From NCBI GenBank assembly GCA_050010675.1, contig JBEKKN010000004.1, positions 172 through 64,171 on the forward strand: DNA of 64,000 nucleotides, written 5' to 3'. The stretch is from Verrucomicrobiota bacterium. GTDB lineage: Bacteria; Verrucomicrobiota; Verrucomicrobiia; Limisphaerales; UBA11358. This document shows positions 4,700-36,033 of the stretch, piece by piece. Under the pieces are notes generated by a model. It ran no database searches. It was not told where the DNA came from and worked only from the letters and a program-made list of their open reading frames with translations. The first letter of the stretch is position 1; every line of letters starts with the position of its first letter. The position numbers were made by a program, and so were the translations under genes.

Positions 4700-4782
4700 G
4701 ATTTACGATTTTGGATTTACGATTTCTCCCGCGCTTGAAGACCTGAAGGACGCGCGCCAATCGTATATCGCAAATCGTAAAT
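4700..4782. repeat. imperfect inverted repeat built from 7-nt 'words' (GATTTAC GATTTTG GATTTAC GATTT ... AATCGTA TATCGCA AATCGTA AAT)
   Basis: The left arm at 4701-4725 is roughly 80% complementary to the right arm at 4759-4782. It lies between the rpoD stop and the next start codon and may act as a terminator. Confidence 0.6.
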
Positions 4783-11701: not shown

Positions 11702-11815
11702 ATTTTATCCACGGCACGCGCAGGGTAATGAACCCAGCGCGTGTCGCATTGATTTTTCACGTTTGGGTGAACTTGACCACCGCGGACTTCGCGGCTCAGA
11801 GGCTCGCCCTTCCAA

Positions 11816-11967
11816 ATGCCTGCGAGATTAGCTGTCGGGCTTGGCCTTGAAAGTGGCCTTGAAACCGGTTGCCCGGCTTCGTTCGCCCCGTCCTCAATCA
11901 CTTTGAGGAGTTTGGGTCTCCCGCGTCCGGCTTCAGGAAGGAAGCCGGACTTCGGCTGCAACGGCAG
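11816..11967 (-). promoter_or_regulatory. candidate c-di-AMP riboswitch (ydaO/yuaA class) in the kdp leader
   Basis: Minus-strand RNA reads ...UCCGGCUUC-CUUCCU-GAAGCCGGA-CGCGGGAGACCCAAA-(hairpin UCCUCA..UGAGGA)-CGGGGCGAAC-(GAAGCCGG-GCAA-CCGGUUUC)-...GCCCGACAGCUAAUCUCGCAGGC. This parallels my recollection of the B. subtilis ydaO blocks GCGGGGGACCCA, GGGGUGAAUCC and CCCGUCAGCUAACCUCGUAAGCG. It is not verified with a covariance model. Confidence 0.6.
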
Positions 11968-13767: not shown

Positions 13768-13812
13768 AGGCGGACCGATCTGTCATCCGCAGTCCGATGG
13801 GAAAATGGTTTT

Positions 13813-14100
13813 GGAAGGGCTGTAAGCCGAATTCTGTCTGCACTCTTGCGAGCGGAGAGAATCATTTGTCTCAGCAGCCGTACCCGGAATCCGTTTCACT
13901 TTCGCGAAACCTGGAGCGGGCCGCTCCGGGATTCCCTATTTGGCCTTGCACCCGATGGGGTTTTCCGTGCCGCGTCGCTTGCGCTTCGCGCGGTGCGCTC
14001 TTACCGCACCTTTTCACCATACGCGGCATCGCGCCCTTTGGTGTTCGGACTTTCCTCCTCCGTCCCGCAAAGCGGGACGGAAGCGATTCTCCACCCTTCC
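13813..14100 (-). ncRNA. rnpB: RNase P RNA (bacterial type A-like), unusually short (about 288 nt)
   Basis: The reverse complement reads GGAAGGGUGG...CGGGACGGAGGAGGAAAGUCCGAACAC...GGUGCGGUAAGAGCGCACCGCG...GCAAGGCCAAAUAGGGAAUCCC...ACAGAAUUCGGCUUACAGCCCUUCC. The universally conserved P4, P13-like, J-region and ACAGAAnnCGGCUUA blocks are present, and P1 pairs GGAAGGG with CCCUUCC. Confidence 0.85.
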
Positions 14101-14149
14101 AAAACCAAGGTGATCCTAACCGGTTCCCGGGAAAATTTCAAGGCAGGAC

Positions 14150-22540: not shown

Positions 22541-22939
22541 ATGGCTGATGGTTGCGGCGTGCTCGTCCGTTTCGGCAAGATTTTTGTGATTGTGGCGCTC
22601 ATCACGACCACCGGCGCGCATTGGGCCGCGCTGCAATCGGTGGCGTGGACGACGATGCTCGCGGACAATTTGCGCACGCACTCGCTTTCCGAATCCGTGT
22701 CCCGCACGTTTGACGGCAATTATCCCTGTCCGATCTGCCGGGCCATCGCCGCGGCCAAGCAGTCCGAAAAGAAGAGCGAATTCACGGCCCAAACGCAGAA
22801 GCTTGAATTTACACCGGCCCAGGAAAACTTCGTGCCGATTGCCCCGTCGCATTTTCAACTTTTGCCGGTCGCCAATGCCTTCGCGGAATCGCTCAGCCAA
22901 CCACCACGGACCCCTCCACCGCGCAGTTTCTTCGTCTAA
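22541..22939 (+). CDS. small membrane-anchored hypothetical protein with HW...LQ..AW and CPxC motifs
   Basis: One N-terminal TM helix (IFVIVALITTTGAHWAALQSVAWTTML) is followed by ...NYPCPICRAIAAAK... It is the first gene of the putative copper cluster. Confidence 0.55.
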   Translation: MADGCGVLVRFGKIFVIVALITTTGAHWAALQSVAWTTMLADNLRTHSLSESVSRTFDGNYPCPICRAIAAAKQSEKKSEFTAQTQKLEFTPAQENFVPIAPSHFQLLPVANAFAESLSQPPRTPPPRSFFV

Positions 22940-22953
22940 TTCGTTTTGATAAC

Positions 22954-22978
22954 GGGAGGGACGGCGTGTCGCCGTCCC
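22954..22978. repeat. GC-rich palindromic repeat unit GGGAGGGACGGCGTGTCGCCGTCCC (family 'GRDG'); possible terminator hairpin
   Basis: The 9-bp stem GGGACGGCG/CGCCGTCCC has loop TGT and lies 15 nt after the stop of 22541..22939. Related copies are at 30194, 30248, 33137, 33177, 63879 and 63907. Confidence 0.7.
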
Positions 22979-23078
22979 TGAATAAATGGGTTCGGCATCC
23001 TGCCGGCCCGCCTGATTGCTCCAAAAAATTAACTTTGAGATCCGCCATGCGGCGGGGTCTCACAACTTGGAATTTAAA

Positions 23079-29701: not shown

Positions 29702-31165
29702 GTGGTCTGGCTTCGTTCTTTTTTGACGCTGAACATTTTGGGGCTTACTGTCTTCGGCGTGGACGCTGTCTCTTCCAATGAAAAATCCCTGGCGGACGCC
29801 GCGCATTTTGTTCGTGGGCAAATTCCGGGTGGCGGCCTTTTTGCGGGACTGGACTGGCGGATTTCGCCGGAGCCGTTTCCGCTCGGGGAAAATCTGGCGC
29901 GGGAAATTGAATCGCTGGGCCGTGTGCTGTTGCAATTTTATCGCGCGGTCAACCTGCTCTACCGGCGCAGCGTGGAAGGCAGACAACCGGCGTGGATTGC
30001 CGAACTGCTGGACCAGGGCAAACCTGCCGGTTTGATTGAGCTTCAGCGTTCGCCCGCGTTCAAGAGCGAGGTGCCGCGCGTGATTCGGCCGGACATTTTG
30101 TTGACCGAATCCGGTTTTAGCATCACCGAACTCGATTCCGTGCCCGGGGGCATCGGCCTGACGGCGTGGTTGGGGCAGACGTATTCCAACCTTGGGAGGG
30201 ACGGCATGTCGCCGTCCCAAACTTCGGAAACACCAACAGACAAATTAGGGACAGCGACACGCCGTCCCTCCCAGGAATTAATCGGCACCGCGGACGGAAT
30301 GGTGCGCGGGTTTGAAAGCATCTTCGGCGACGCCAAACAGGTTCACATCATTGTGTCCGAGGAAGCCGCGACCTACCGGCCGGAAATGGAATGGATCTCG
30401 AAGGAAGTGCGAAGTGCGAAGTGCGAAGTGCGCAGCGCGGAATTCACAGATTTCGCCGAGGGCGATGCGGTTTACCGCTTCTTCGAGCTGTTCGACCTGG
30501 CCAACGTGCCGGATTCGAAAAGGATTTTTGGACTGGCGGCTGAAAAACGGATCCGGCTGACACCACCGCCGAAACCCCTGTTTGAGGAAAAGCTGCTGTT
30601 CGCGCTGTTGTGGAACCGGAATTTGCGCGACTTTTGGCGCGGAGAACTGGGCGAGAGCTTTCTGGCACGCCTGCAAAAAGTGATTCCTTACACGTGGGCG
30701 GTGGATCCGACCCCGCTGCCGCCGCACGCGGCGATACCCGAATTGAACCTCACCGACTGGCAGCAGCTCAAAACGCTGTCGCAACGCCAACGCGAATTGA
30801 TTTTGAAGGTGTCCGGTTTTTCCGAACACGCCTGGGGCGCACGCGGCGTTTATCTCGGCAGCGACCTGTCGCACGCGGACTGGAGCGCGGCGGTGGACCG
30901 GGCCCTCGCGAGCTTCCCGACCTCGCCCTTCGTCCTGCAACGCTATGAGAAACCGAAAACCGTCGAGGCACAGTGGTACGATTTCGAAAAGAACGCCGTC
31001 GTGCCGATGAAGGGGCGGGTCCGTTTGTGCCCGTATTATTTCGTTGCCGGTGAAGGGGATGCGGCGCGCCCGCAATTGGGCGGAGTGCTGGCAACCATTG
31101 TTCCCGCCGATAAAAAAATTGTTCACGGCATGAGCGACGCGATTCTTGCACCGTGCGCGGTCTAG
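29702..31165 (+). CDS. uncharacterised ATP-grasp-like protein carrying an in-frame palindromic insert and a heptamer repeat tract
   Basis: A continuous 487-codon ORF. ...RVIRPDILLTESGFSITELDSVPGG... and the C-terminal ...LILKVSGFSEHAWGARGVYLG...FVLQRY...GRVRLCPYYF...GGVLATIVP...HGMSDAILAPC have ATP-grasp-like logic. The family is not identified and the start is uncertain. Confidence 0.55.
   Translation: MVWLRSFLTLNILGLTVFGVDAVSSNEKSLADAAHFVRGQIPGGGLFAGLDWRISPEPFPLGENLAREIESLGRVLLQFYRAVNLLYRRSVEGRQPAWIAELLDQGKPAGLIELQRSPAFKSEVPRVIRPDILLTESGFSITELDSVPGGIGLTAWLGQTYSNLGRDGMSPSQTSETPTDKLGTATRRPSQELIGTADGMVRGFESIFGDAKQVHIIVSEEAATYRPEMEWISKEVRSAKCEVRSAEFTDFAEGDAVYRFFELFDLANVPDSKRIFGLAAEKRIRLTPPPKPLFEEKLLFALLWNRNLRDFWRGELGESFLARLQKVIPYTWAVDPTPLPPHAAIPELNLTDWQQLKTLSQRQRELILKVSGFSEHAWGARGVYLGSDLSHADWSAAVDRALASFPTSPFVLQRYEKPKTVEAQWYDFEKNAVVPMKGRVRLCPYYFVAGEGDAARPQLGGVLATIVPADKKIVHGMSDAILAPCAV
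30193..30273. repeat. 81-nt inverted pair of 'GRDG' palindromic units inside the CDS 29702..31165
   Basis: The left unit is TGGGAGGGACGGCATGTCGCCGTCCC (30193-30218). The right unit is GGGACAGCGACACGCCGTCCCTCCCA (30248-30273). They are reverse complements apart from 2 mismatches. The length is 27 codons exactly. Confidence 0.8.
30404..30438. repeat. tandem heptanucleotide repeat (GAAGTGC)x4 plus one degenerate unit GCAGCGC, inside a CDS
   Basis: Read directly from the sequence: 30404-30431 is four perfect GAAGTGC units. It is translated as EVRSAKCEVRSA. Confidence 0.9.
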
Positions 31166-31228: not shown

Positions 31229-32104
31229 ATGCCCTCAAAAACCCAGCGTGGTGATGCGAAAACGACGACGCCGGTGCGTCGCCACGCGGCACTGCTTAAT
31301 CTGCTGGCGGACGAAAACGCGGAGGTTTATCAGGCGGTGCGCGGGCAAATTCTGGCCGAGGGCAGCGCCGCAAGTGAATGGCTGAAACCCCACACCTTGA
31401 GCAACGACCCGCTGTTGCGCCGGCGCGTCCAGGAAATCCTCCGGCACGTGGAGAGGCAGGCGGCCGACAATCGCTTTCTCAGCTTCTGCCTCAACCACGG
31501 CGAGGAATTTGACCTGGAACTGGCGGCATGGCTGCTGGCCCAAACGTACTTTCCCGAAATCAACGTGGAGGCGTACCAGGCGCTGCTCGACGGTTATGCG
31601 AATGCACTGCGTGAACGCACGGATCGTCACGGACGCGCGAATGCGGTGTTGGGAAAGATCAGCGACTACCTTTTCGGCGAGCTCGGCTTCAAGGGGAACG
31701 AACAAAATTATTACGAACCCGACAACAGCTACCTGAATCGCGTACTCGACCGGCGGACGGGCAATCCCATCACCCTTTGCTTGTTTTATATGCTGCTGGC
31801 GCGGCGGCTGCAGTTGCCGATTGTCGGCATCGGCCTGCCGGGCCATTTCATTTGCCGCCACCAATCCGCGTCCGGCGAGATCTACGTGGACGTCTTCAAC
31901 CGCGGACGCCTGCTGACCAAGGCCGATTGCGTGCATTACCTGGTGCGCGGCAATTACGACCTGCGCGAGGAATATCTCGCCCCGGTCAGCCCGCGCCGGA
32001 TTTTTTTGCGGATCTGCAGCAACCTGCACCAGATCTACCTTGAACTGGGCTTGAAGGACGACGCCACCCGCGTGCAACGTTACCTTGTGGCATTGGCGCG
32101 TTGA
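31229..32104 (+). CDS. transglutaminase-like/TPR protein (SirB1/YchA-like)
   Basis: ...YYEPDNSYLNRVLDRRTGNPITLCLFYMLLARRLQLPIVGIGLPGHFICRH... matches the transglutaminase-like core with its Cys and His. The C-terminal region is helical and TPR-like. Confidence 0.7.
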   Translation: MPSKTQRGDAKTTTPVRRHAALLNLLADENAEVYQAVRGQILAEGSAASEWLKPHTLSNDPLLRRRVQEILRHVERQAADNRFLSFCLNHGEEFDLELAAWLLAQTYFPEINVEAYQALLDGYANALRERTDRHGRANAVLGKISDYLFGELGFKGNEQNYYEPDNSYLNRVLDRRTGNPITLCLFYMLLARRLQLPIVGIGLPGHFICRHQSASGEIYVDVFNRGRLLTKADCVHYLVRGNYDLREEYLAPVSPRRIFLRICSNLHQIYLELGLKDDATRVQRYLVALAR

Positions 32105-32144
32105 CTTGCCAAACCGCCGCGCACCGCGTAAAGGTAATGTCGGC

Positions 32145-32219
32145 GCCAGTTTAGCTCAGTGGTAGAGCAACGGTTTTGTAAACCGTCGGTCGTCGGTTCA
32201 AATCCGACAACTGGCTCCA
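32145..32219 (+). tRNA. tRNA-Thr (anticodon UGU), CCA encoded
   Basis: A manual cloverleaf fits: acceptor GCCAGTT/AACTGGC, D stem GCTC/GAGC, anticodon stem ACGGT/ACCGT with loop TT-TGT-AA, and T stem GTCGG/CCGAC with loop TTCAAAT. Confidence 0.9.
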
Positions 32220-32285
32220 GTCTTCCTTGAGCTTGTCATTGCGCCGTTGGCCAAATTCGGAAACACTTCATTCGGAAGGAATTTC

Positions 32286-33647
32286 ATGCCCCGCAAAACG
32301 TCAATACGGCCAAATTCAGCGGCGTCGGTGATGATTCTCGGCGTCGGCTCGTTCGCGCACAGCCTCGGACGCACGCTGGCCGATGCCGGCATGACCGTCT
32401 CCACCTACCTCACCCGCAATTATGGACATTTCCCACCGTCACTCGTCGGACCGACCTTTTCGCGCGACGCATTTCCCAGCCCCATCCCGCTCATCAGGAA
32501 AAACGAAATCGACGTCGTCATTCCGCAATCCATCGACTGGGCGCTCGCGCCGTGGGCGAAGGATTTGATGAAATCCGGTGTCGGGATCTTCAGCCCCACG
32601 CGCGAGGCGATGCGCATCGAGCGGGAACGGGATTTCGCCCGTAAACTCTGCGCCGACTTCAAGATTCCGTTTCCGCAGGCTTACGTGGCCTCAAACCGGC
32701 TCGAAGCTGAAAAAATCCTGGCGGACCATCCGCAGCCGTTCGTCATCAAAAACCCGCTCTGCTCGCCCACCAGTCCGATTCACACGATTTTGTGCGAAAC
32801 CGTCGAGGACACGCGCGCCTGGCTGCGGCACGTCAATTATGCCGAAGGCGTCTTTTTACAGGAATACCTTGGGCGCGCCGAGGCCGGGCACATTGCACTA
32901 GTGAGTGGCGGGGAGATTTATTCCCTCGTCACCAATCAGGAATACAAATACGCCTTCAACGGCAATCAGGGCATTGTCGCCGGCGCGCCGCTCGGCGGCC
33001 TGGTCGAGCGCGATCCGGACGACCAATACGGCCTGGCGCGCGGGCTAATTCACCCGCTGTTGCCCTGGCTGCGCAAAGTTAAATACCACGGTCCGATCCA
33101 GGTAACGGCCGTTAAAACAGGGCGGGCTTCCCACCCGGGAGCGCCGGCGTCTCGCCGGCGTGTTGCCGAAAAACCGGCCGGCGGGACGCCGGCGCTCCCA
33201 GGGCAATGGCACGTCATCGAATACAACATCCGCATCGGCGTCACGTCCGGCCCGATGATTTTGCGGATGCTGAAAAATCCGGTGGAAACTGTTTTGCGAA
33301 CCACGCGAAATGAAAAACTTGACCCGCAATTCAAGCCCGGACTGAATTTCGGCTGCTCCCTGACCCTGGCCGGCTACGGCTATCCGTTCACGCAGGTCCG
33401 CAGCCCGCATCTGCCGCTGGAGGTGGACGGTCCGTTCGATTGCGATGTGTGGTGGAATGAAGTGGCCCGCGGCACGGATGGCAAACTGGTTTCCACGGGC
33501 CACCGCATTGCCGATGTGATTGCACTCGCGCCAATGCTGGACGCCGCCATTTCCAAAGCTTACGCGAACATCCGCAAAATCCGCGTCGTGGGCAGCTATT
33601 TCCGCACGGACATCGGCCAAAGCCTGTGGCCGCCGGGTACCGTTTAA
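32286..33647 (+). CDS. PurD-like ATP-grasp protein (function uncertain) with an in-frame palindromic insert
   Basis: The Rossmann-like N-terminus is VMILGVGSFAHSLG. The ATP-grasp core reads ...PFVIKNPLCSP...GVFLQEYL...HVIEYNIRIG.... It diverges from canonical PurD. The ATG at 32286 is preferred because the ORF start at 32247 is only 28 nt from the tRNA. Confidence 0.6.
   Translation: MPRKTSIRPNSAASVMILGVGSFAHSLGRTLADAGMTVSTYLTRNYGHFPPSLVGPTFSRDAFPSPIPLIRKNEIDVVIPQSIDWALAPWAKDLMKSGVGIFSPTREAMRIERERDFARKLCADFKIPFPQAYVASNRLEAEKILADHPQPFVIKNPLCSPTSPIHTILCETVEDTRAWLRHVNYAEGVFLQEYLGRAEAGHIALVSGGEIYSLVTNQEYKYAFNGNQGIVAGAPLGGLVERDPDDQYGLARGLIHPLLPWLRKVKYHGPIQVTAVKTGRASHPGAPASRRRVAEKPAGGTPALPGQWHVIEYNIRIGVTSGPMILRMLKNPVETVLRTTRNEKLDPQFKPGLNFGCSLTLAGYGYPFTQVRSPHLPLEVDGPFDCDVWWNEVARGTDGKLVSTGHRIADVIALAPMLDAAISKAYANIRKIRVVGSYFRTDIGQSLWPPGTV
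33137..33199. repeat. 63-nt inverted pair of 'GRDG'-family units inside the CDS 32286..33647
   Basis: The left unit is GGGAGCGCCGGCGTCTCGCCGGC (33137-33159) and the right unit is GCCGGCGGGACGCCGGCGCTCCC (33177-33199). They are reverse complements with 1 mismatch. The length is 21 codons exactly. Confidence 0.8.
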
Positions 33648-33652
33648 TTTTC

Positions 33653-33683
33653 AACCACGGATGGACACAGATGGACACGGATA
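33653..33683 (+). repeat. decamer 'word' repeat AACCACGGATGGACACAGATGGACACGGATA
   Basis: It lies directly after the stop of the PurD-like gene. Related copies are at 35056-35084 (+) and 35191-35224 (-), with a partial copy at about 22481-22500. Confidence 0.7.
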
Positions 33684-33865
33684 AGGAATAGATTAATGGA
33701 TTCGTGGATTGATGGATGGGGTGAGCAGAGGGCGTTCTGGATTTTCCAATAATCCCATCATCCAACAATCCGTTTTCTGAAAATCCGTGTCGATCGGTGG
33801 TTAACGAGCAGTTCGTTTTTCCGTGCCATTTGGCATGATTCGTGGTTAAACAGTCTCAACGTTTT

Positions 33866-35050
33866 ATGAATTTCGATTCGACTAGTTTTCCCTTGCGGCC
33901 GGCGTGGACCGAGATTGACCTCGGCCGGTTGCGAAACAACCTGCGGCTCATCCGCCGCGACCTGCCCAAGCACGTGCGGCTGCTCGCCGTCGTGAAGGAC
34001 GAAGCGTACGGCCATGGCGCCCTCGACGTGGCCCGCATCGCACTTGAAGAAGGCGCGTGGGGCTTCGGCCTCAGTACGCTGGAAGAGGCGATGGCCCTTC
34101 GCGATGCCGGAATCACCGAGCCGCTGCTGTTGCTGGGCGAACGGCAGGAAGCCGAACTCCCATGGTGCGTCGAGCATGACCTGACTGTCTGCGTCAACGA
34201 GCCACACGCCGTTCGCAAACTCGCACAGATCGCCGCCGCCCACGGCAAACGGGTGCCCGTGCACGTGAAGATTCACACCGGTATGAGCCGTTACGGCGTG
34301 CGCTGGGACGAAGCCCTGCCACTCATCGAACAGATTTGTTCCGAAAAATCGCTGCTGCTCGAGGGTGCCATGACGCACTTCGCACAATCGGACGAAACCG
34401 ACAAGACGTTTGCGAACCTCCAGTTTTCGCGCTACCGCGAGGTCTTGCGCGCGATGGAACAGCGGAAAATTCCTGTGAAACTGCGCCACACGTGCAACAG
34501 CGGCGGTTTTCTTGATTTGCCTCAGGCGCACCTCGACATGGTGCGGGTGGGCATTTTGCTGTACGGCGTTTTTCCTTCGTCGGTGTGCCGCCGGATTCCC
34601 GGCATTGAACCGGTGATGTCGGTCAAGGCGCGCATCGCGGCAATTCAAAAACTGAAACCCGGCGAGGTGGTCGGTTACGGCATGCGTTACACGGCCTCAT
34701 CGGAACGGCGTATCGCCATTCTGCCCATCGGTTACGGCGACGGTTTCCCGCGCGTGCGCAACCAGGGCGGCGCCCTCATCCGCGGCCAGCGGGCCCCGCT
34801 GATTGGTGGTATTGCCATGGACGCGTTGATGGTGGACATCACGGACATTCCCGAGGCGCAACTGTGGGACGAAGCCGTCATCATGGGCCGCCAGGGCAAT
34901 GAGGAAATCACCGTGCACGACATGGCCAAGCTGAAAAACTCGGTGAGCTACGATGTGCTGACCAACTGGCGGCTGCGCCTGCGGCGCCAATCGGTGAACG
35001 GCAAATCCGCGCCGGTAAAAATCGAAGTCGAAACCGCCGTTACAAAATAA
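33866..35050 (+). CDS. alr: alanine racemase
   Basis: AVVKDEAYGHG contains the PLP lysine. ...MSRYGV... and ...VGYGMRY... are present. The ATG at 33866 is preferred over the GTG at 33842. Confidence 0.9.
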   Translation: MNFDSTSFPLRPAWTEIDLGRLRNNLRLIRRDLPKHVRLLAVVKDEAYGHGALDVARIALEEGAWGFGLSTLEEAMALRDAGITEPLLLLGERQEAELPWCVEHDLTVCVNEPHAVRKLAQIAAAHGKRVPVHVKIHTGMSRYGVRWDEALPLIEQICSEKSLLLEGAMTHFAQSDETDKTFANLQFSRYREVLRAMEQRKIPVKLRHTCNSGGFLDLPQAHLDMVRVGILLYGVFPSSVCRRIPGIEPVMSVKARIAAIQKLKPGEVVGYGMRYTASSERRIAILPIGYGDGFPRVRNQGGALIRGQRAPLIGGIAMDALMVDITDIPEAQLWDEAVIMGRQGNEEITVHDMAKLKNSVSYDVLTNWRLRLRRQSVNGKSAPVKIEVETAVTK

Positions 35051-35055
35051 TTTTT

Positions 35056-35084
35056 ACCACGGATGAACACAGATAAACACGGAT
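35056..35084 (+). repeat. degenerate copy of the CCACGGATGGACAC decamer-word repeat
   Basis: The sequence is ACCACGGATGAACACAGATAAACACGGAT, immediately after the alr stop. Confidence 0.6.
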
Positions 35085-35190
35085 TCCAAATGCTGACGCA
35101 GGCAGGGCGCGTCAATCCATGCGCGCCGCTCGCTGCGGACGAACATCACCGCCCGGAAAACGGCGGGCAGAGGACCGCTTGCTTTGCCAA

Positions 35191-35224
35191 CATCCGTGTC
35201 CATCCGTGTCCATCCGTGGTTGAT
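35191..35224 (-). repeat. inverted copy of the decamer-word repeat (CATCCGTGTC x2, then CATCCGTGGTTGA)
   Basis: The reverse complement is TCAACCACGGATGGACACGGATGGACACGGATG. Together with 35056-35084 it forms an inverted pair about 105 nt apart. Confidence 0.7.
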
Positions 35225-35229
35225 CTGCG

Positions 35230-36033
35230 ATGAAACTTCTTTTTTCCGAACAAAATTCCGACTACGAGCATTACCAGTTTCCGTATGCCATCTGGGCCGT
35301 GCCGGAGGACGGGGAAATGCCGTCGGACATTTTTGACGCGGGCTTTTTGCCGTCGTCACGCAATCTCGACCGGTTTTATCTCTGCCGCCAGGTGCGGGTG
35401 AACCTGGCGAAGTTCCAGCCGTCGTCCGAGAACCGCCGCATTCTGCGCAAGGGCGGGGGCATCGAAGTGAAGCTCGTGCCGCGCGACAAATACGATTACA
35501 CGCCCGAACGCCGCCAGTTTTTCAAGACCTACGCCGACATCAAATTCGGCAAGGACGTGATGACCTTCGAACGGCTCGATGCGCTGTTCAGTTCGCCCAT
35601 CATCTCACACCTGCTCGTGTTCTCGGACGCGAAGACGGGCGGCGAAATTGGCGCGGCCACGCTCTATCTCGAGGGCAAGGCGCTGGCGTTTTATTACTAC
35701 GCGTTTTACGACCTGAATTATTACGCGCGCAACCTCGGCATGTTCATGATGACTTCGGCGGTGGCACTGTTCGCCGGGCACGGCGTGAAGCAGCTTTACC
35801 TCGGCACCTGCTATTCACAGACGGCACTGTACAAGACGCAGTTCGCCGGCGCGGAATTTTTCAACGGGTTCCGCTGGTCGGATGATTTGGACGAGCTGAA
35901 ATTCATCATCAAACGCGACAAAAAGGATTTGACCCAGCACCTGCTCGAAACGGACGAATACCGCGACGAATTTTACGACGGCAACCTCGGCAAGATCGCC
36001 GACGCCAGCGCCTTTCACATCAAAATCAAGTGA
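35230..36033 (+). CDS. arginyl-/aminoacyl-tRNA--protein transferase-like protein (ATE_C/Bpt-like GNAT fold)
   Basis: ...ALAFYYYAFYDLNYYARNLGMFMMTSAVALFAGHGVKQLYLGTCYSQTALYKTQFAGAEFF... resembles the Bpt/ATE C-terminal block. The assignment is from memory. Confidence 0.5.
   Translation: MKLLFSEQNSDYEHYQFPYAIWAVPEDGEMPSDIFDAGFLPSSRNLDRFYLCRQVRVNLAKFQPSSENRRILRKGGGIEVKLVPRDKYDYTPERRQFFKTYADIKFGKDVMTFERLDALFSSPIISHLLVFSDAKTGGEIGAATLYLEGKALAFYYYAFYDLNYYARNLGMFMMTSAVALFAGHGVKQLYLGTCYSQTALYKTQFAGAEFFNGFRWSDDLDELKFIIKRDKKDLTQHLLETDEYRDEFYDGNLGKIADASAFHIKIK

Follow-up and report, generated by a model that had tools for sequence, protein, structure and literature searches.

A translated palindromic doublet, probably of REPIN type, at a recurrently occupied turn of a PurD-like ATP-grasp protein in Verrucomicrobiota

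We analyzed a 64,000-nt stretch of DNA from a Verrucomicrobiota bacterium (assembly GCA_050010675.1, contig JBEKKN010000004.1; hereafter the window, whose numbering is used throughout), in which a 63-nt palindrome lies in frame within the open reading frame (ORF) of a PurD-like ATP-grasp protein. The palindrome is very probably a REPIN-type doublet of repetitive extragenic palindromic (REP) units, which belongs to a dispersed, non-autonomous family of the kind associated with REP-associated tyrosine transposases (RAYTs) and is tolerated in a turn of the host protein that has been occupied recurrently. Across a Limisphaerales-like clade of Verrucomicrobiota, this turn has been occupied again and again by at least seven types of element (A–G, with type F in the window), which are nested in or replace one another.

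Results

Anatomy of the palindrome

The left REP unit of the element, GGGAGCGCCGGCGTCTCGCCGGC, occupies 33137..33159 (+ strand; GGGAG head, followed by CGCCGGCG-tct-CGCCGGCG), and its inverted counterpart, with one mismatch to it, occupies 33177..33199 (− strand). The two 23-nt arms are separated by a 17-nt spacer (GTGTTGCCGAAAAACCG, 33160..33176, + strand) that forms the loop of a long hairpin, exactly as the original prediction had described them. Shuffles of the window gave 0.00 expected chance matches to the arm. Folded as DNA, the 89-nt stretch 33117–33205 reached −40.6 kcal/mol (z −5.7), and folded as RNA it reached −71.4 kcal/mol (z −6.9), with no shuffle equal to either. Every arm is itself self-complementary: behind a TGGGAG head it contains the inner hairpin CGCCGGCG-tct-CGCCGGCG, which gives the element a choice between a single long hairpin and two short ones. 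Across type-F copies, the head reads (C/G)TGGGAG. Each unit is accordingly a short imperfect palindrome behind a conserved head, and two such units in inverted orientation, joined by a spacer into a long hairpin, make up the architecture of a REP doublet or REPIN. The element has a G+C content of 80% and is off the codon register, beginning at the third base of codon 284 and ending at the second base of codon 305. Its spacer shares GCCGAAAACCGG with the reverse complement of a recurrent 26-nt spacer of the type-F family, and the spacer of another type-F copy, in locus L201, is also 17 nt long and identical to it at 10/17 positions. A search of Rfam found no family for the element, only generic long-hairpin matches far under the gathering scores.

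Dispersal of the arm and its association with a RAYT

A metagenome scan with the arm pattern GGGAGCGCYGGCGTYYCGCCGGC matched at least 120 contigs, none of which, among those listed, carried the orthologous gene. The listed contigs contained 33 inverted doublets (spacers of 13–122 nt) and 94 single units, with conserved flanks (cCTGGGAG...CTCCCAGg) and a recurring 26-nt spacer. Their GC content ranged from 0.48 to 0.72, so several organisms carry the arm. Intergenic copies of the type-F arm were also present in verrucomicrobial loci (L015, L025, L031 and L042), and copies of types B, D, E and F were found at other, mostly intergenic positions of the 80 orthologous loci surveyed below. A census of 1.36 Mb returned about 60 strong palindromes of many families, nearly all of them intergenic; those within long ORFs were almost all at the single site described here. 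The prediction of an inserted, dispersed palindromic repeat with the reading frame preserved was thus borne out, and the family is far from absent elsewhere.

The transposase link comes from one of these contigs, L147 (Ga0075434_100002816), whose ORF at 992–1615 (−) encodes a RAYT, as judged by NCBIfam NF047646 (86.6 bits, cut-off 80) and Pfam Y1_Tnp (37.3 bits). This gene is bracketed by doublets of the window's 23-nt arm at 869–973 and 1645–1746, the defining layout of a RAYT with its REPs. Three further contigs contained weaker RAYT-like ORFs flanked by other hairpin repeats.

Extent and composite nature of the insert

Alignments of 120 homologues and of the 80 orthologous loci showed that the whole extra segment is 84 nt long (33117..33200, + strand), of which the palindrome is the larger part. 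Empty orthologues, many of them with 427 residues, read K-R-G-G-Q-W at this position (..QVTAVK-RG-GQWHVIEYN..); in the window, residues 278–305 (TGRASHPGAPASRRRVAEKPAGGTPALP) replace the R-G pair. With 28 residues in place of two, the net gain is therefore 26 codons. An in-frame insert of 63 nt and 21 codons had been proposed; the frame is indeed kept, but the insert is longer and composite. Its first 20 nt (33117..33136, + strand) are the decayed left unit of a type-B palindromic element (ACAGGGCGGGCTTCCCACCC, compared with the consensus GTAGGACAGGCTTCCAGCCTG), as recognized by comparison with the orthologous loci L001 and L007. The series runs from ACAGGGCGGGCTTCCCACCC in the window through the intermediate form GTAGGACGGGCTTCCCACCT in L001 to an intact type-B doublet with the same derived G in L007. 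Both the window and L001 carry the type-F doublet directly after this decayed unit, with the junction falling within a shared CCTG, so the locus is a small intragenic REP cluster.

An assembly artefact was rejected because independent assemblies share the same insert (P0001, comprising 23 member sequences, and L001); an intein, an intron and a CRISPR were rejected because the element has none of their features and is not long enough. On the minus strand, the right arm followed by CGGTTTTTCG (33177–33193) and the type-B remnant followed by TGTTTTAACG (33120–33136) each fit the pattern of an intrinsic terminator, and such features could stop antisense transcripts; on the sense strand, no T-run follows the hairpins.

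Recurrent occupation of one turn across species

The 120 closest homologues aligned at 80–95% identity. The survey of orthologues used one genome per species and comprised 80 loci plus the window (81 in total), nearly all of them labelled as Verrucomicrobiota/Limisphaerales metagenome-assembled genomes (MAGs) from peat and soil. A 4-residue β-hairpin turn was found in 47/81, and extra DNA at the turn in the other 34. All 50 relatives at 55–73% identity, as well as true PurDs, likewise had the 4-residue turn. The insert is hence restricted to a single clade and does not characterize the protein family, and the placement of the insertion at a short loop, first proposed by analogy with PurD, is upheld.

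The extra DNA forms a strong hairpin (−35 to −72 kcal/mol) in nearly every occupied locus and falls into at least seven sequence types. Types A (GTGGCGGCGACGCC.., encoding VAATPRRR..ATGASQP), B (GTAGGACAGGCTTCCAGCCTGTCTCC.., encoding VGQASSLSPS..ETGATPVLR), C (GTGGCACAGGCGTCCCG..), F (the window's type) and G (AACAGAAGCAAACGAAG.., encoding TEANEENKESSLSSLSS) all start directly after the Lys277 codon, where the empty target reads AAR|CGCGGCGGCCAATGG, and types D (GGTGGGGCGAGCGTCCTCGCGAGCCGGC..) and E (GGTAGGGACGCG.., encoding GRDALPRVRADRQVSPT) start two to four codons later. Nesting is seen in L030, in which a type-G element lies in the loop of a type-B element. Short forms in L038, L072 and L018 resemble deletion remnants, and the VASG/VARG sequences of L076 and L080 are possibly remnants as well. 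The type-G insert of L040 (8157–8303) contains an in-frame TAG (..GSSLS*LSSVKK..), which may reflect a pseudogene, a sequencing error or read-through.

When occupied junctions were compared with empty ones, no target-site duplication was seen; instead, 3–6 nt of the target were replaced. These junctions bear on whether the element is a classical MITE (miniature transposable element with inverted repeats), that is, a deletion derivative of a DDE-type insertion sequence (IS) moved by cut-and-paste through terminal inverted repeats. The element is short, dispersed and has inverted-repeat ends, and in-frame insertions of bacterial MITEs are known (reviewed in PMC10969869). Such an origin nonetheless seems very improbable to us, as the duplication expected of a MITE is absent, the arms are self-complementary REP-like hairpins of which 94 stood alone among the contigs listed, and the sole transposase observed between copies of the arm is of the RAYT and not of the DDE kind.

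The empty target also bears on an origin in place, in which template switching or hairpin-primed repair in the G+C-rich turn (target CGCGGCGGC) would have generated the palindromes without any mobile element. The left end of type A, GTGGCGGC, is similar to the empty target GCGGCGGC, and types A, C and G were found, within our sample, at this site only. For type F this explanation is largely refuted by the presence of the identical 23-nt arm at no fewer than 120 unrelated loci and by its position on both sides of a RAYT, and types B, D and E likewise have copies elsewhere; as a general account we consider it scarcely credible.

History of the site and rate of change

Counting independent insertions by gene-tree parsimony failed, because the tree is close to a star and element types are spread over it much as in shuffled tips (31 changes, compared with 30–33 after shuffling). 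The occupied or empty state alone carries signal, confined to the vicinity of the site and stronger with shorter flanks, with 11 changes compared with 25.9 for shuffled tips when ±45 nt of flanking sequence were used and 19 compared with 25.8 for ±372 nt. It also follows the flanking haplotype, including synonymous differences: alleles reading HGPI with caa/acg are mostly occupied and those reading NGPL with cag/acc mostly empty. Close pairs can differ in content, as in L001 and L007 (type F and intact type B; four-fold distance 0.11), L009 and L025 (type A and empty; 0.13) and L013 and L031 (type A and empty; 0.19), and more distant pairs can share a type, as in L009 and L013 (both type A; 0.27) and the window and L001 (both type F; 0.31). 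This pattern points to recombination within the gene together with fast turnover of the resident element in the occupied allele. Locus L201 carries type F without the type-B remnant, in a haplotype usually seen with empty sites; on its sequence, a separate entry of type F and an 18-nt deletion from a window-like allele appear equally possible. What had been read as an independent insertion is therefore an insertion, but probably not one simple independent hit, as the site holds different elements in many species.

The elements evolve 5–8 times slower than the four-fold degenerate sites of the host gene, with 6% compared with 31% change between the window and L001, 4% compared with 41% between L009 and L055, and 5% compared with 35% between L004 and L005. 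Between the window and L001, the type-F palindrome differs at 1/63 positions, the type-B remnant at 4/20 and the upstream flank at 4/24. Hairpin constraint, repeated copying from a master sequence and ectopic conversion could each account for this slow change alike.

The same figures are what one would expect if the host had co-opted the element, so that a hairpin in mRNA or DNA (through translational pausing, mRNA stability or an antisense block) or a flexible peptide loop were functional and kept the site occupied. Both the contrast with four-fold sites and that between the palindrome and its neighboring remnant and flank would fit, as would the retention of an element in 34/81 species and the resemblance of the right arm plus spacer, and of the type-B remnant, to minus-strand intrinsic terminators. 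We nevertheless judge co-option improbable: 47/81 species and all more distant relatives do without an insert, the occupying types are unrelated and encode different peptides, and the peptide is of low complexity and predicted to be disordered. High conservation is, moreover, general in REPIN populations (PMC3116915) and can also result from recent copying or conversion against master copies.

The host gene and the position of the insert in its fold

The host ORF (32286..33647, + strand) encodes a 453-aa protein with Pfam matches to GARS_C (6.6 × 10−10) and GARS_A (1.2 × 10−5), and a profile of its family retrieved solved PurD structures from the PDB (2xcl at 2.7 × 10−22, 2ip4 and 1gso), in agreement with the original placement of the element inside a PurD-like ATP-grasp ORF. 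Its score against TIGR00877 (PurD, phosphoribosylamine-glycine ligase) was 100 bits, below the equivalog cut-off of 288; given its glycinamide ribonucleotide (GAR)-synthetase fold, we therefore describe the gene as a PurD-like paralogue. In lineages that bear the insert, purifying selection acts on the gene, as shown by a ratio of nonsynonymous to synonymous change (dN/dS) of 0.06–0.12. A tRNA-Thr (TGT) gene lies directly upstream on the same strand (32145–32219). The neighborhood, which comprises a transglutaminase-like protein, the PurD-like ligase, alanine racemase and a GNAT/ATE_C-like protein, is conserved (window 31229–36033; L201 32–6401), and this gene content suggests a role for the paralogue in amino-acid or peptide ligation, not in purine synthesis.

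Structure prediction with AlphaFold2 from an alignment of 48 homologues at 80–95% identity gave an unusable model (predicted local distance difference test (pLDDT) 45) and was redone with 50 more distant homologues, which yielded a mean pLDDT of 88.1 and a predicted TM-score of 0.87. The model matched GAR synthetases with Foldseek TM-scores of 0.70–0.82. The insert sits between the strand ..PIQVTAVK and the strand QWHVIEYNIRIG, between Lys277 and Gly306, in the turn that in the PurD alignment corresponds to ..GLMLT-xxG-PKVLEFNxRFGDPE... Strands 269–278 and 307–314 were predicted with confidence, and residues 279–306 as coil, with pLDDT <50 at 281–289 and 291–302. Such a model had been proposed as a check for a disordered surface loop beside an intact ATP-grasp core, and the prediction agrees with one. 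As the gene is under purifying selection in the lineages that carry it, the insert reads as a tolerated, low-complexity and probably disordered surface loop on an intact GAR-synthetase fold.

Sister repeats and other features of the window

Allowing for up to one mismatch, a looser core, GGGAGSGMCGGCGTSTCGCCG, has further matches at 22954, 30194 and 30252 (−), where 0.03 would be expected. These copies share the GGGAG head and the GGCGT.TCGCC center of the type-F element, as had been noted when they were assigned to the same family. Their stems differ, in a mutually compensating way (GGACGGC/GCCGTCC compared with CGCCGGC/GCCGGCG), and the copies at 22954 and 30194 therefore represent a sister sub-family and not the type-F family itself. 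One is a single unit recognized by its match to the core pattern (GGGAGGGACGGCGTGTCGCCGTCCC, 22954..22979, + strand), 15 nt past the stop codon of ORF 22541–22939. The other is a doublet (GGGAGGGACGGC.TGTCGCCGTCCC arms; 30193..30273, + strand) that lies in frame in ORF 29702–31165 and has orthologous copies in L002, L020 and L050. That site is hypervariable among the orthologous positions examined (L002, L003, L004, L010, L014, L017, L020, L033, L050 and L072), with the different repeat-like peptides SKSEIRNPKSEI, CGMRNAECGMAGTQNQSEIRNPKSEI and GRDGMSPSQ..TATRRPSQ and a duplicated form in L020. Both host genes had been thought to be ATP-grasp-like; for ORF 29702–31165, this view was not confirmed, as we detected no ATP-grasp signature in it and found no Pfam or PDB sequence match.

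Just downstream of the PurD-like gene, at 33650–33720, lies an intergenic repeat of short CACGGAT/CACAGAT-type units (..CCACGGATGGACACAGATGGACACGGATAAGG..), which recurs as palindromes in L058 (2379–2475) and L075 (12522–12603). An A+T-rich inverted repeat at 4701–4782 (ATTTACGATTTTGGATTTACGATT / AATCGTATATCGCAAATCGTAAAT; 24-nt arms, 88% complementarity) resembles TTTACGATT-type palindromes of L013 and L055. At the Rfam gathering threshold, the window also contains a class A RNase P RNA (13807–14102, −; 146 bits) and a c-di-AMP riboswitch (11802–11967, −; 56 bits).

Discussion

The identification of the window element as a REPIN-type doublet, tolerated in frame at a recurrently occupied turn, draws its strength from the two inverted 23-nt REP units, which are G+C-rich hairpins behind a (GT/CT)GGGAG head, and from the association of the family, in one contig, with a RAYT, a transposase of the IS200/IS605-like kind that acts on single-stranded DNA. 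Several observations weigh against it. The head is TGGGAG or GTGGGAG, not the canonical GTAG, and the copy is intragenic and in frame in a conserved gene under selection, while the definition of REPs makes them mostly extragenic. In the 64-kb window there is one copy of the type-F family, beside the three units of the sister sub-family, and types A, C and G had no copy away from the insertion site in the 2 Mb sampled. No RAYT was detected in the window or the 80 loci, either by regular expression or by a hidden Markov model built from 110 RAYT homologues, although at about 17 kb per genome this is weak evidence either way. The closest relatives of the L147 RAYT are labelled Thermoanaerobaculia/Acidobacteriota, not Verrucomicrobiota, which leaves two readings: a REP/RAYT system that crosses phyla, or unreliable MAG labels. 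Labels of other phyla are likewise found on several orthologous loci of the verrucomicrobial gene.

If the element is of REPIN type, single-strand transposition of the RAYT kind, or recombination with a second copy, would have brought the doublet to the site; mobilization by a RAYT in this genome, and the mechanism by which one type replaces another, are likewise inferred. Once in the gene, the element would be translated as a 28-residue, low-complexity and probably disordered surface loop. The insert survives because its length is a multiple of three, no stop codon falls in frame and the turn lies outside the catalytic core, and presumably only stop-free copies of such length persist in the turn. 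A resident hairpin would then most likely draw further REP insertion or ectopic conversion, leading to the nesting and replacement of types.

A stronger version holds that the Lys277/Arg278 codon boundary is a specific landing pad, or a nucleation site for REP clusters, at which seven or more families integrate, nest and overwrite one another across dozens of species. Targeted re-insertion or ectopic gene conversion would then keep copies near the genomic master sequence and so account for their much slower change relative to synonymous sites. We put this forward tentatively and think it rather less likely than not to hold. If true, the occupied and empty alleles at the site would form a natural series, from which one could read the target rules of RAYT/REPIN mobility.

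Irrespective of the landing-pad proposal, the PurD-like gene presents selfish palindromic DNA carried as protein sequence in a conserved enzyme, together with empty alleles, a confident structural model and a link to a transposase. A single β-hairpin turn across 81 species displays doublets, nested elements, remnants and possible footprints, and so provides exact junctions that are useful for studying how REPINs choose their targets, how they replace one another and how protein loops gain sequence. For annotation, it follows that low-complexity segments of the GAPASRRR or AGETPALP type in proteins of soil Verrucomicrobiota are translated repeats, not domains.

The closest known systems are the REPINs (PMC3116915; Bertels & Rainey 2011) and REP dimers (PMC3733652; Di Nocera et al. 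2013). As in these, the window element pairs two inverted units of about 23 nt, both of them imperfect palindromes preceded by a conserved head, and the copy in L201 starts with GTGGGAG, as does the group I REP of Pseudomonas fluorescens SBW25 (PMC3116915). The variable spacer is typical of tail-to-tail dimers, and single-stranded DNA or RNA of the doublet can fold into a long hairpin. Dispersed copies include single units as well as doublets, and in L147 units of the window type lie on either side of a RAYT gene. REPINs are defined as extragenic, whereas the window copy is intragenic, its head departs from the canonical GTAG and a cognate RAYT in this genome would have to be supposed. Head variants with GTGG beside canonical GTAG have been described, and intragenic REP dimers encoding 20–30 aa have been listed, most numerously in the verrucomicrobium Opitutus terrae (PMC3733652). 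What sets the present site apart is that many REP types meet at one codon boundary across species.

In its position within the surface of a functional protein, with the frame kept, the window element also resembles another group of repeats. Rickettsia palindromic elements (RPEs; RPE-1 and its relatives), reportedly described by Ogata et al. in 2000 and by Claverie and Ogata in 2003 and cited in PMC3733652, are palindromic selfish repeats that lie in frame in genes for functional proteins and are translated as surface segments with the fold intact. They are about 100–150 bp long, A+T-rich and specific to Rickettsia, and their sites are mostly single old insertions; we know of no RAYT link for RPE-1. 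The window element is set apart by being shorter, having a G+C content of 80% and coming from Verrucomicrobiota, so that no sequence relation is expected, and its site shows turnover in place of a single old insertion. Between the in-frame REP dimers of Opitutus terrae and the RPEs of Rickettsia, the kind of event described here is already known; in the papers we read, we found no prior description of many REP families repeatedly occupying a single codon boundary.

A parallel for the succession of elements is offered by IS elements that insert into resident REPs (IS1397/ISKpn1 and ISPpu9), which Tobes and Pareja are said to have described in 2006 and which PMC3733652 and PMC8450116 mention. 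In both cases, a resident palindrome would serve as the target for further mobile DNA, and such targeting would explain the type-G element nested in type B, the type-F doublet beside a type-B remnant and the succession of types at the turn. In those cases it is full IS elements that enter REPs outside genes; at the present turn, small REP doublets appear to replace one another within a coding loop.

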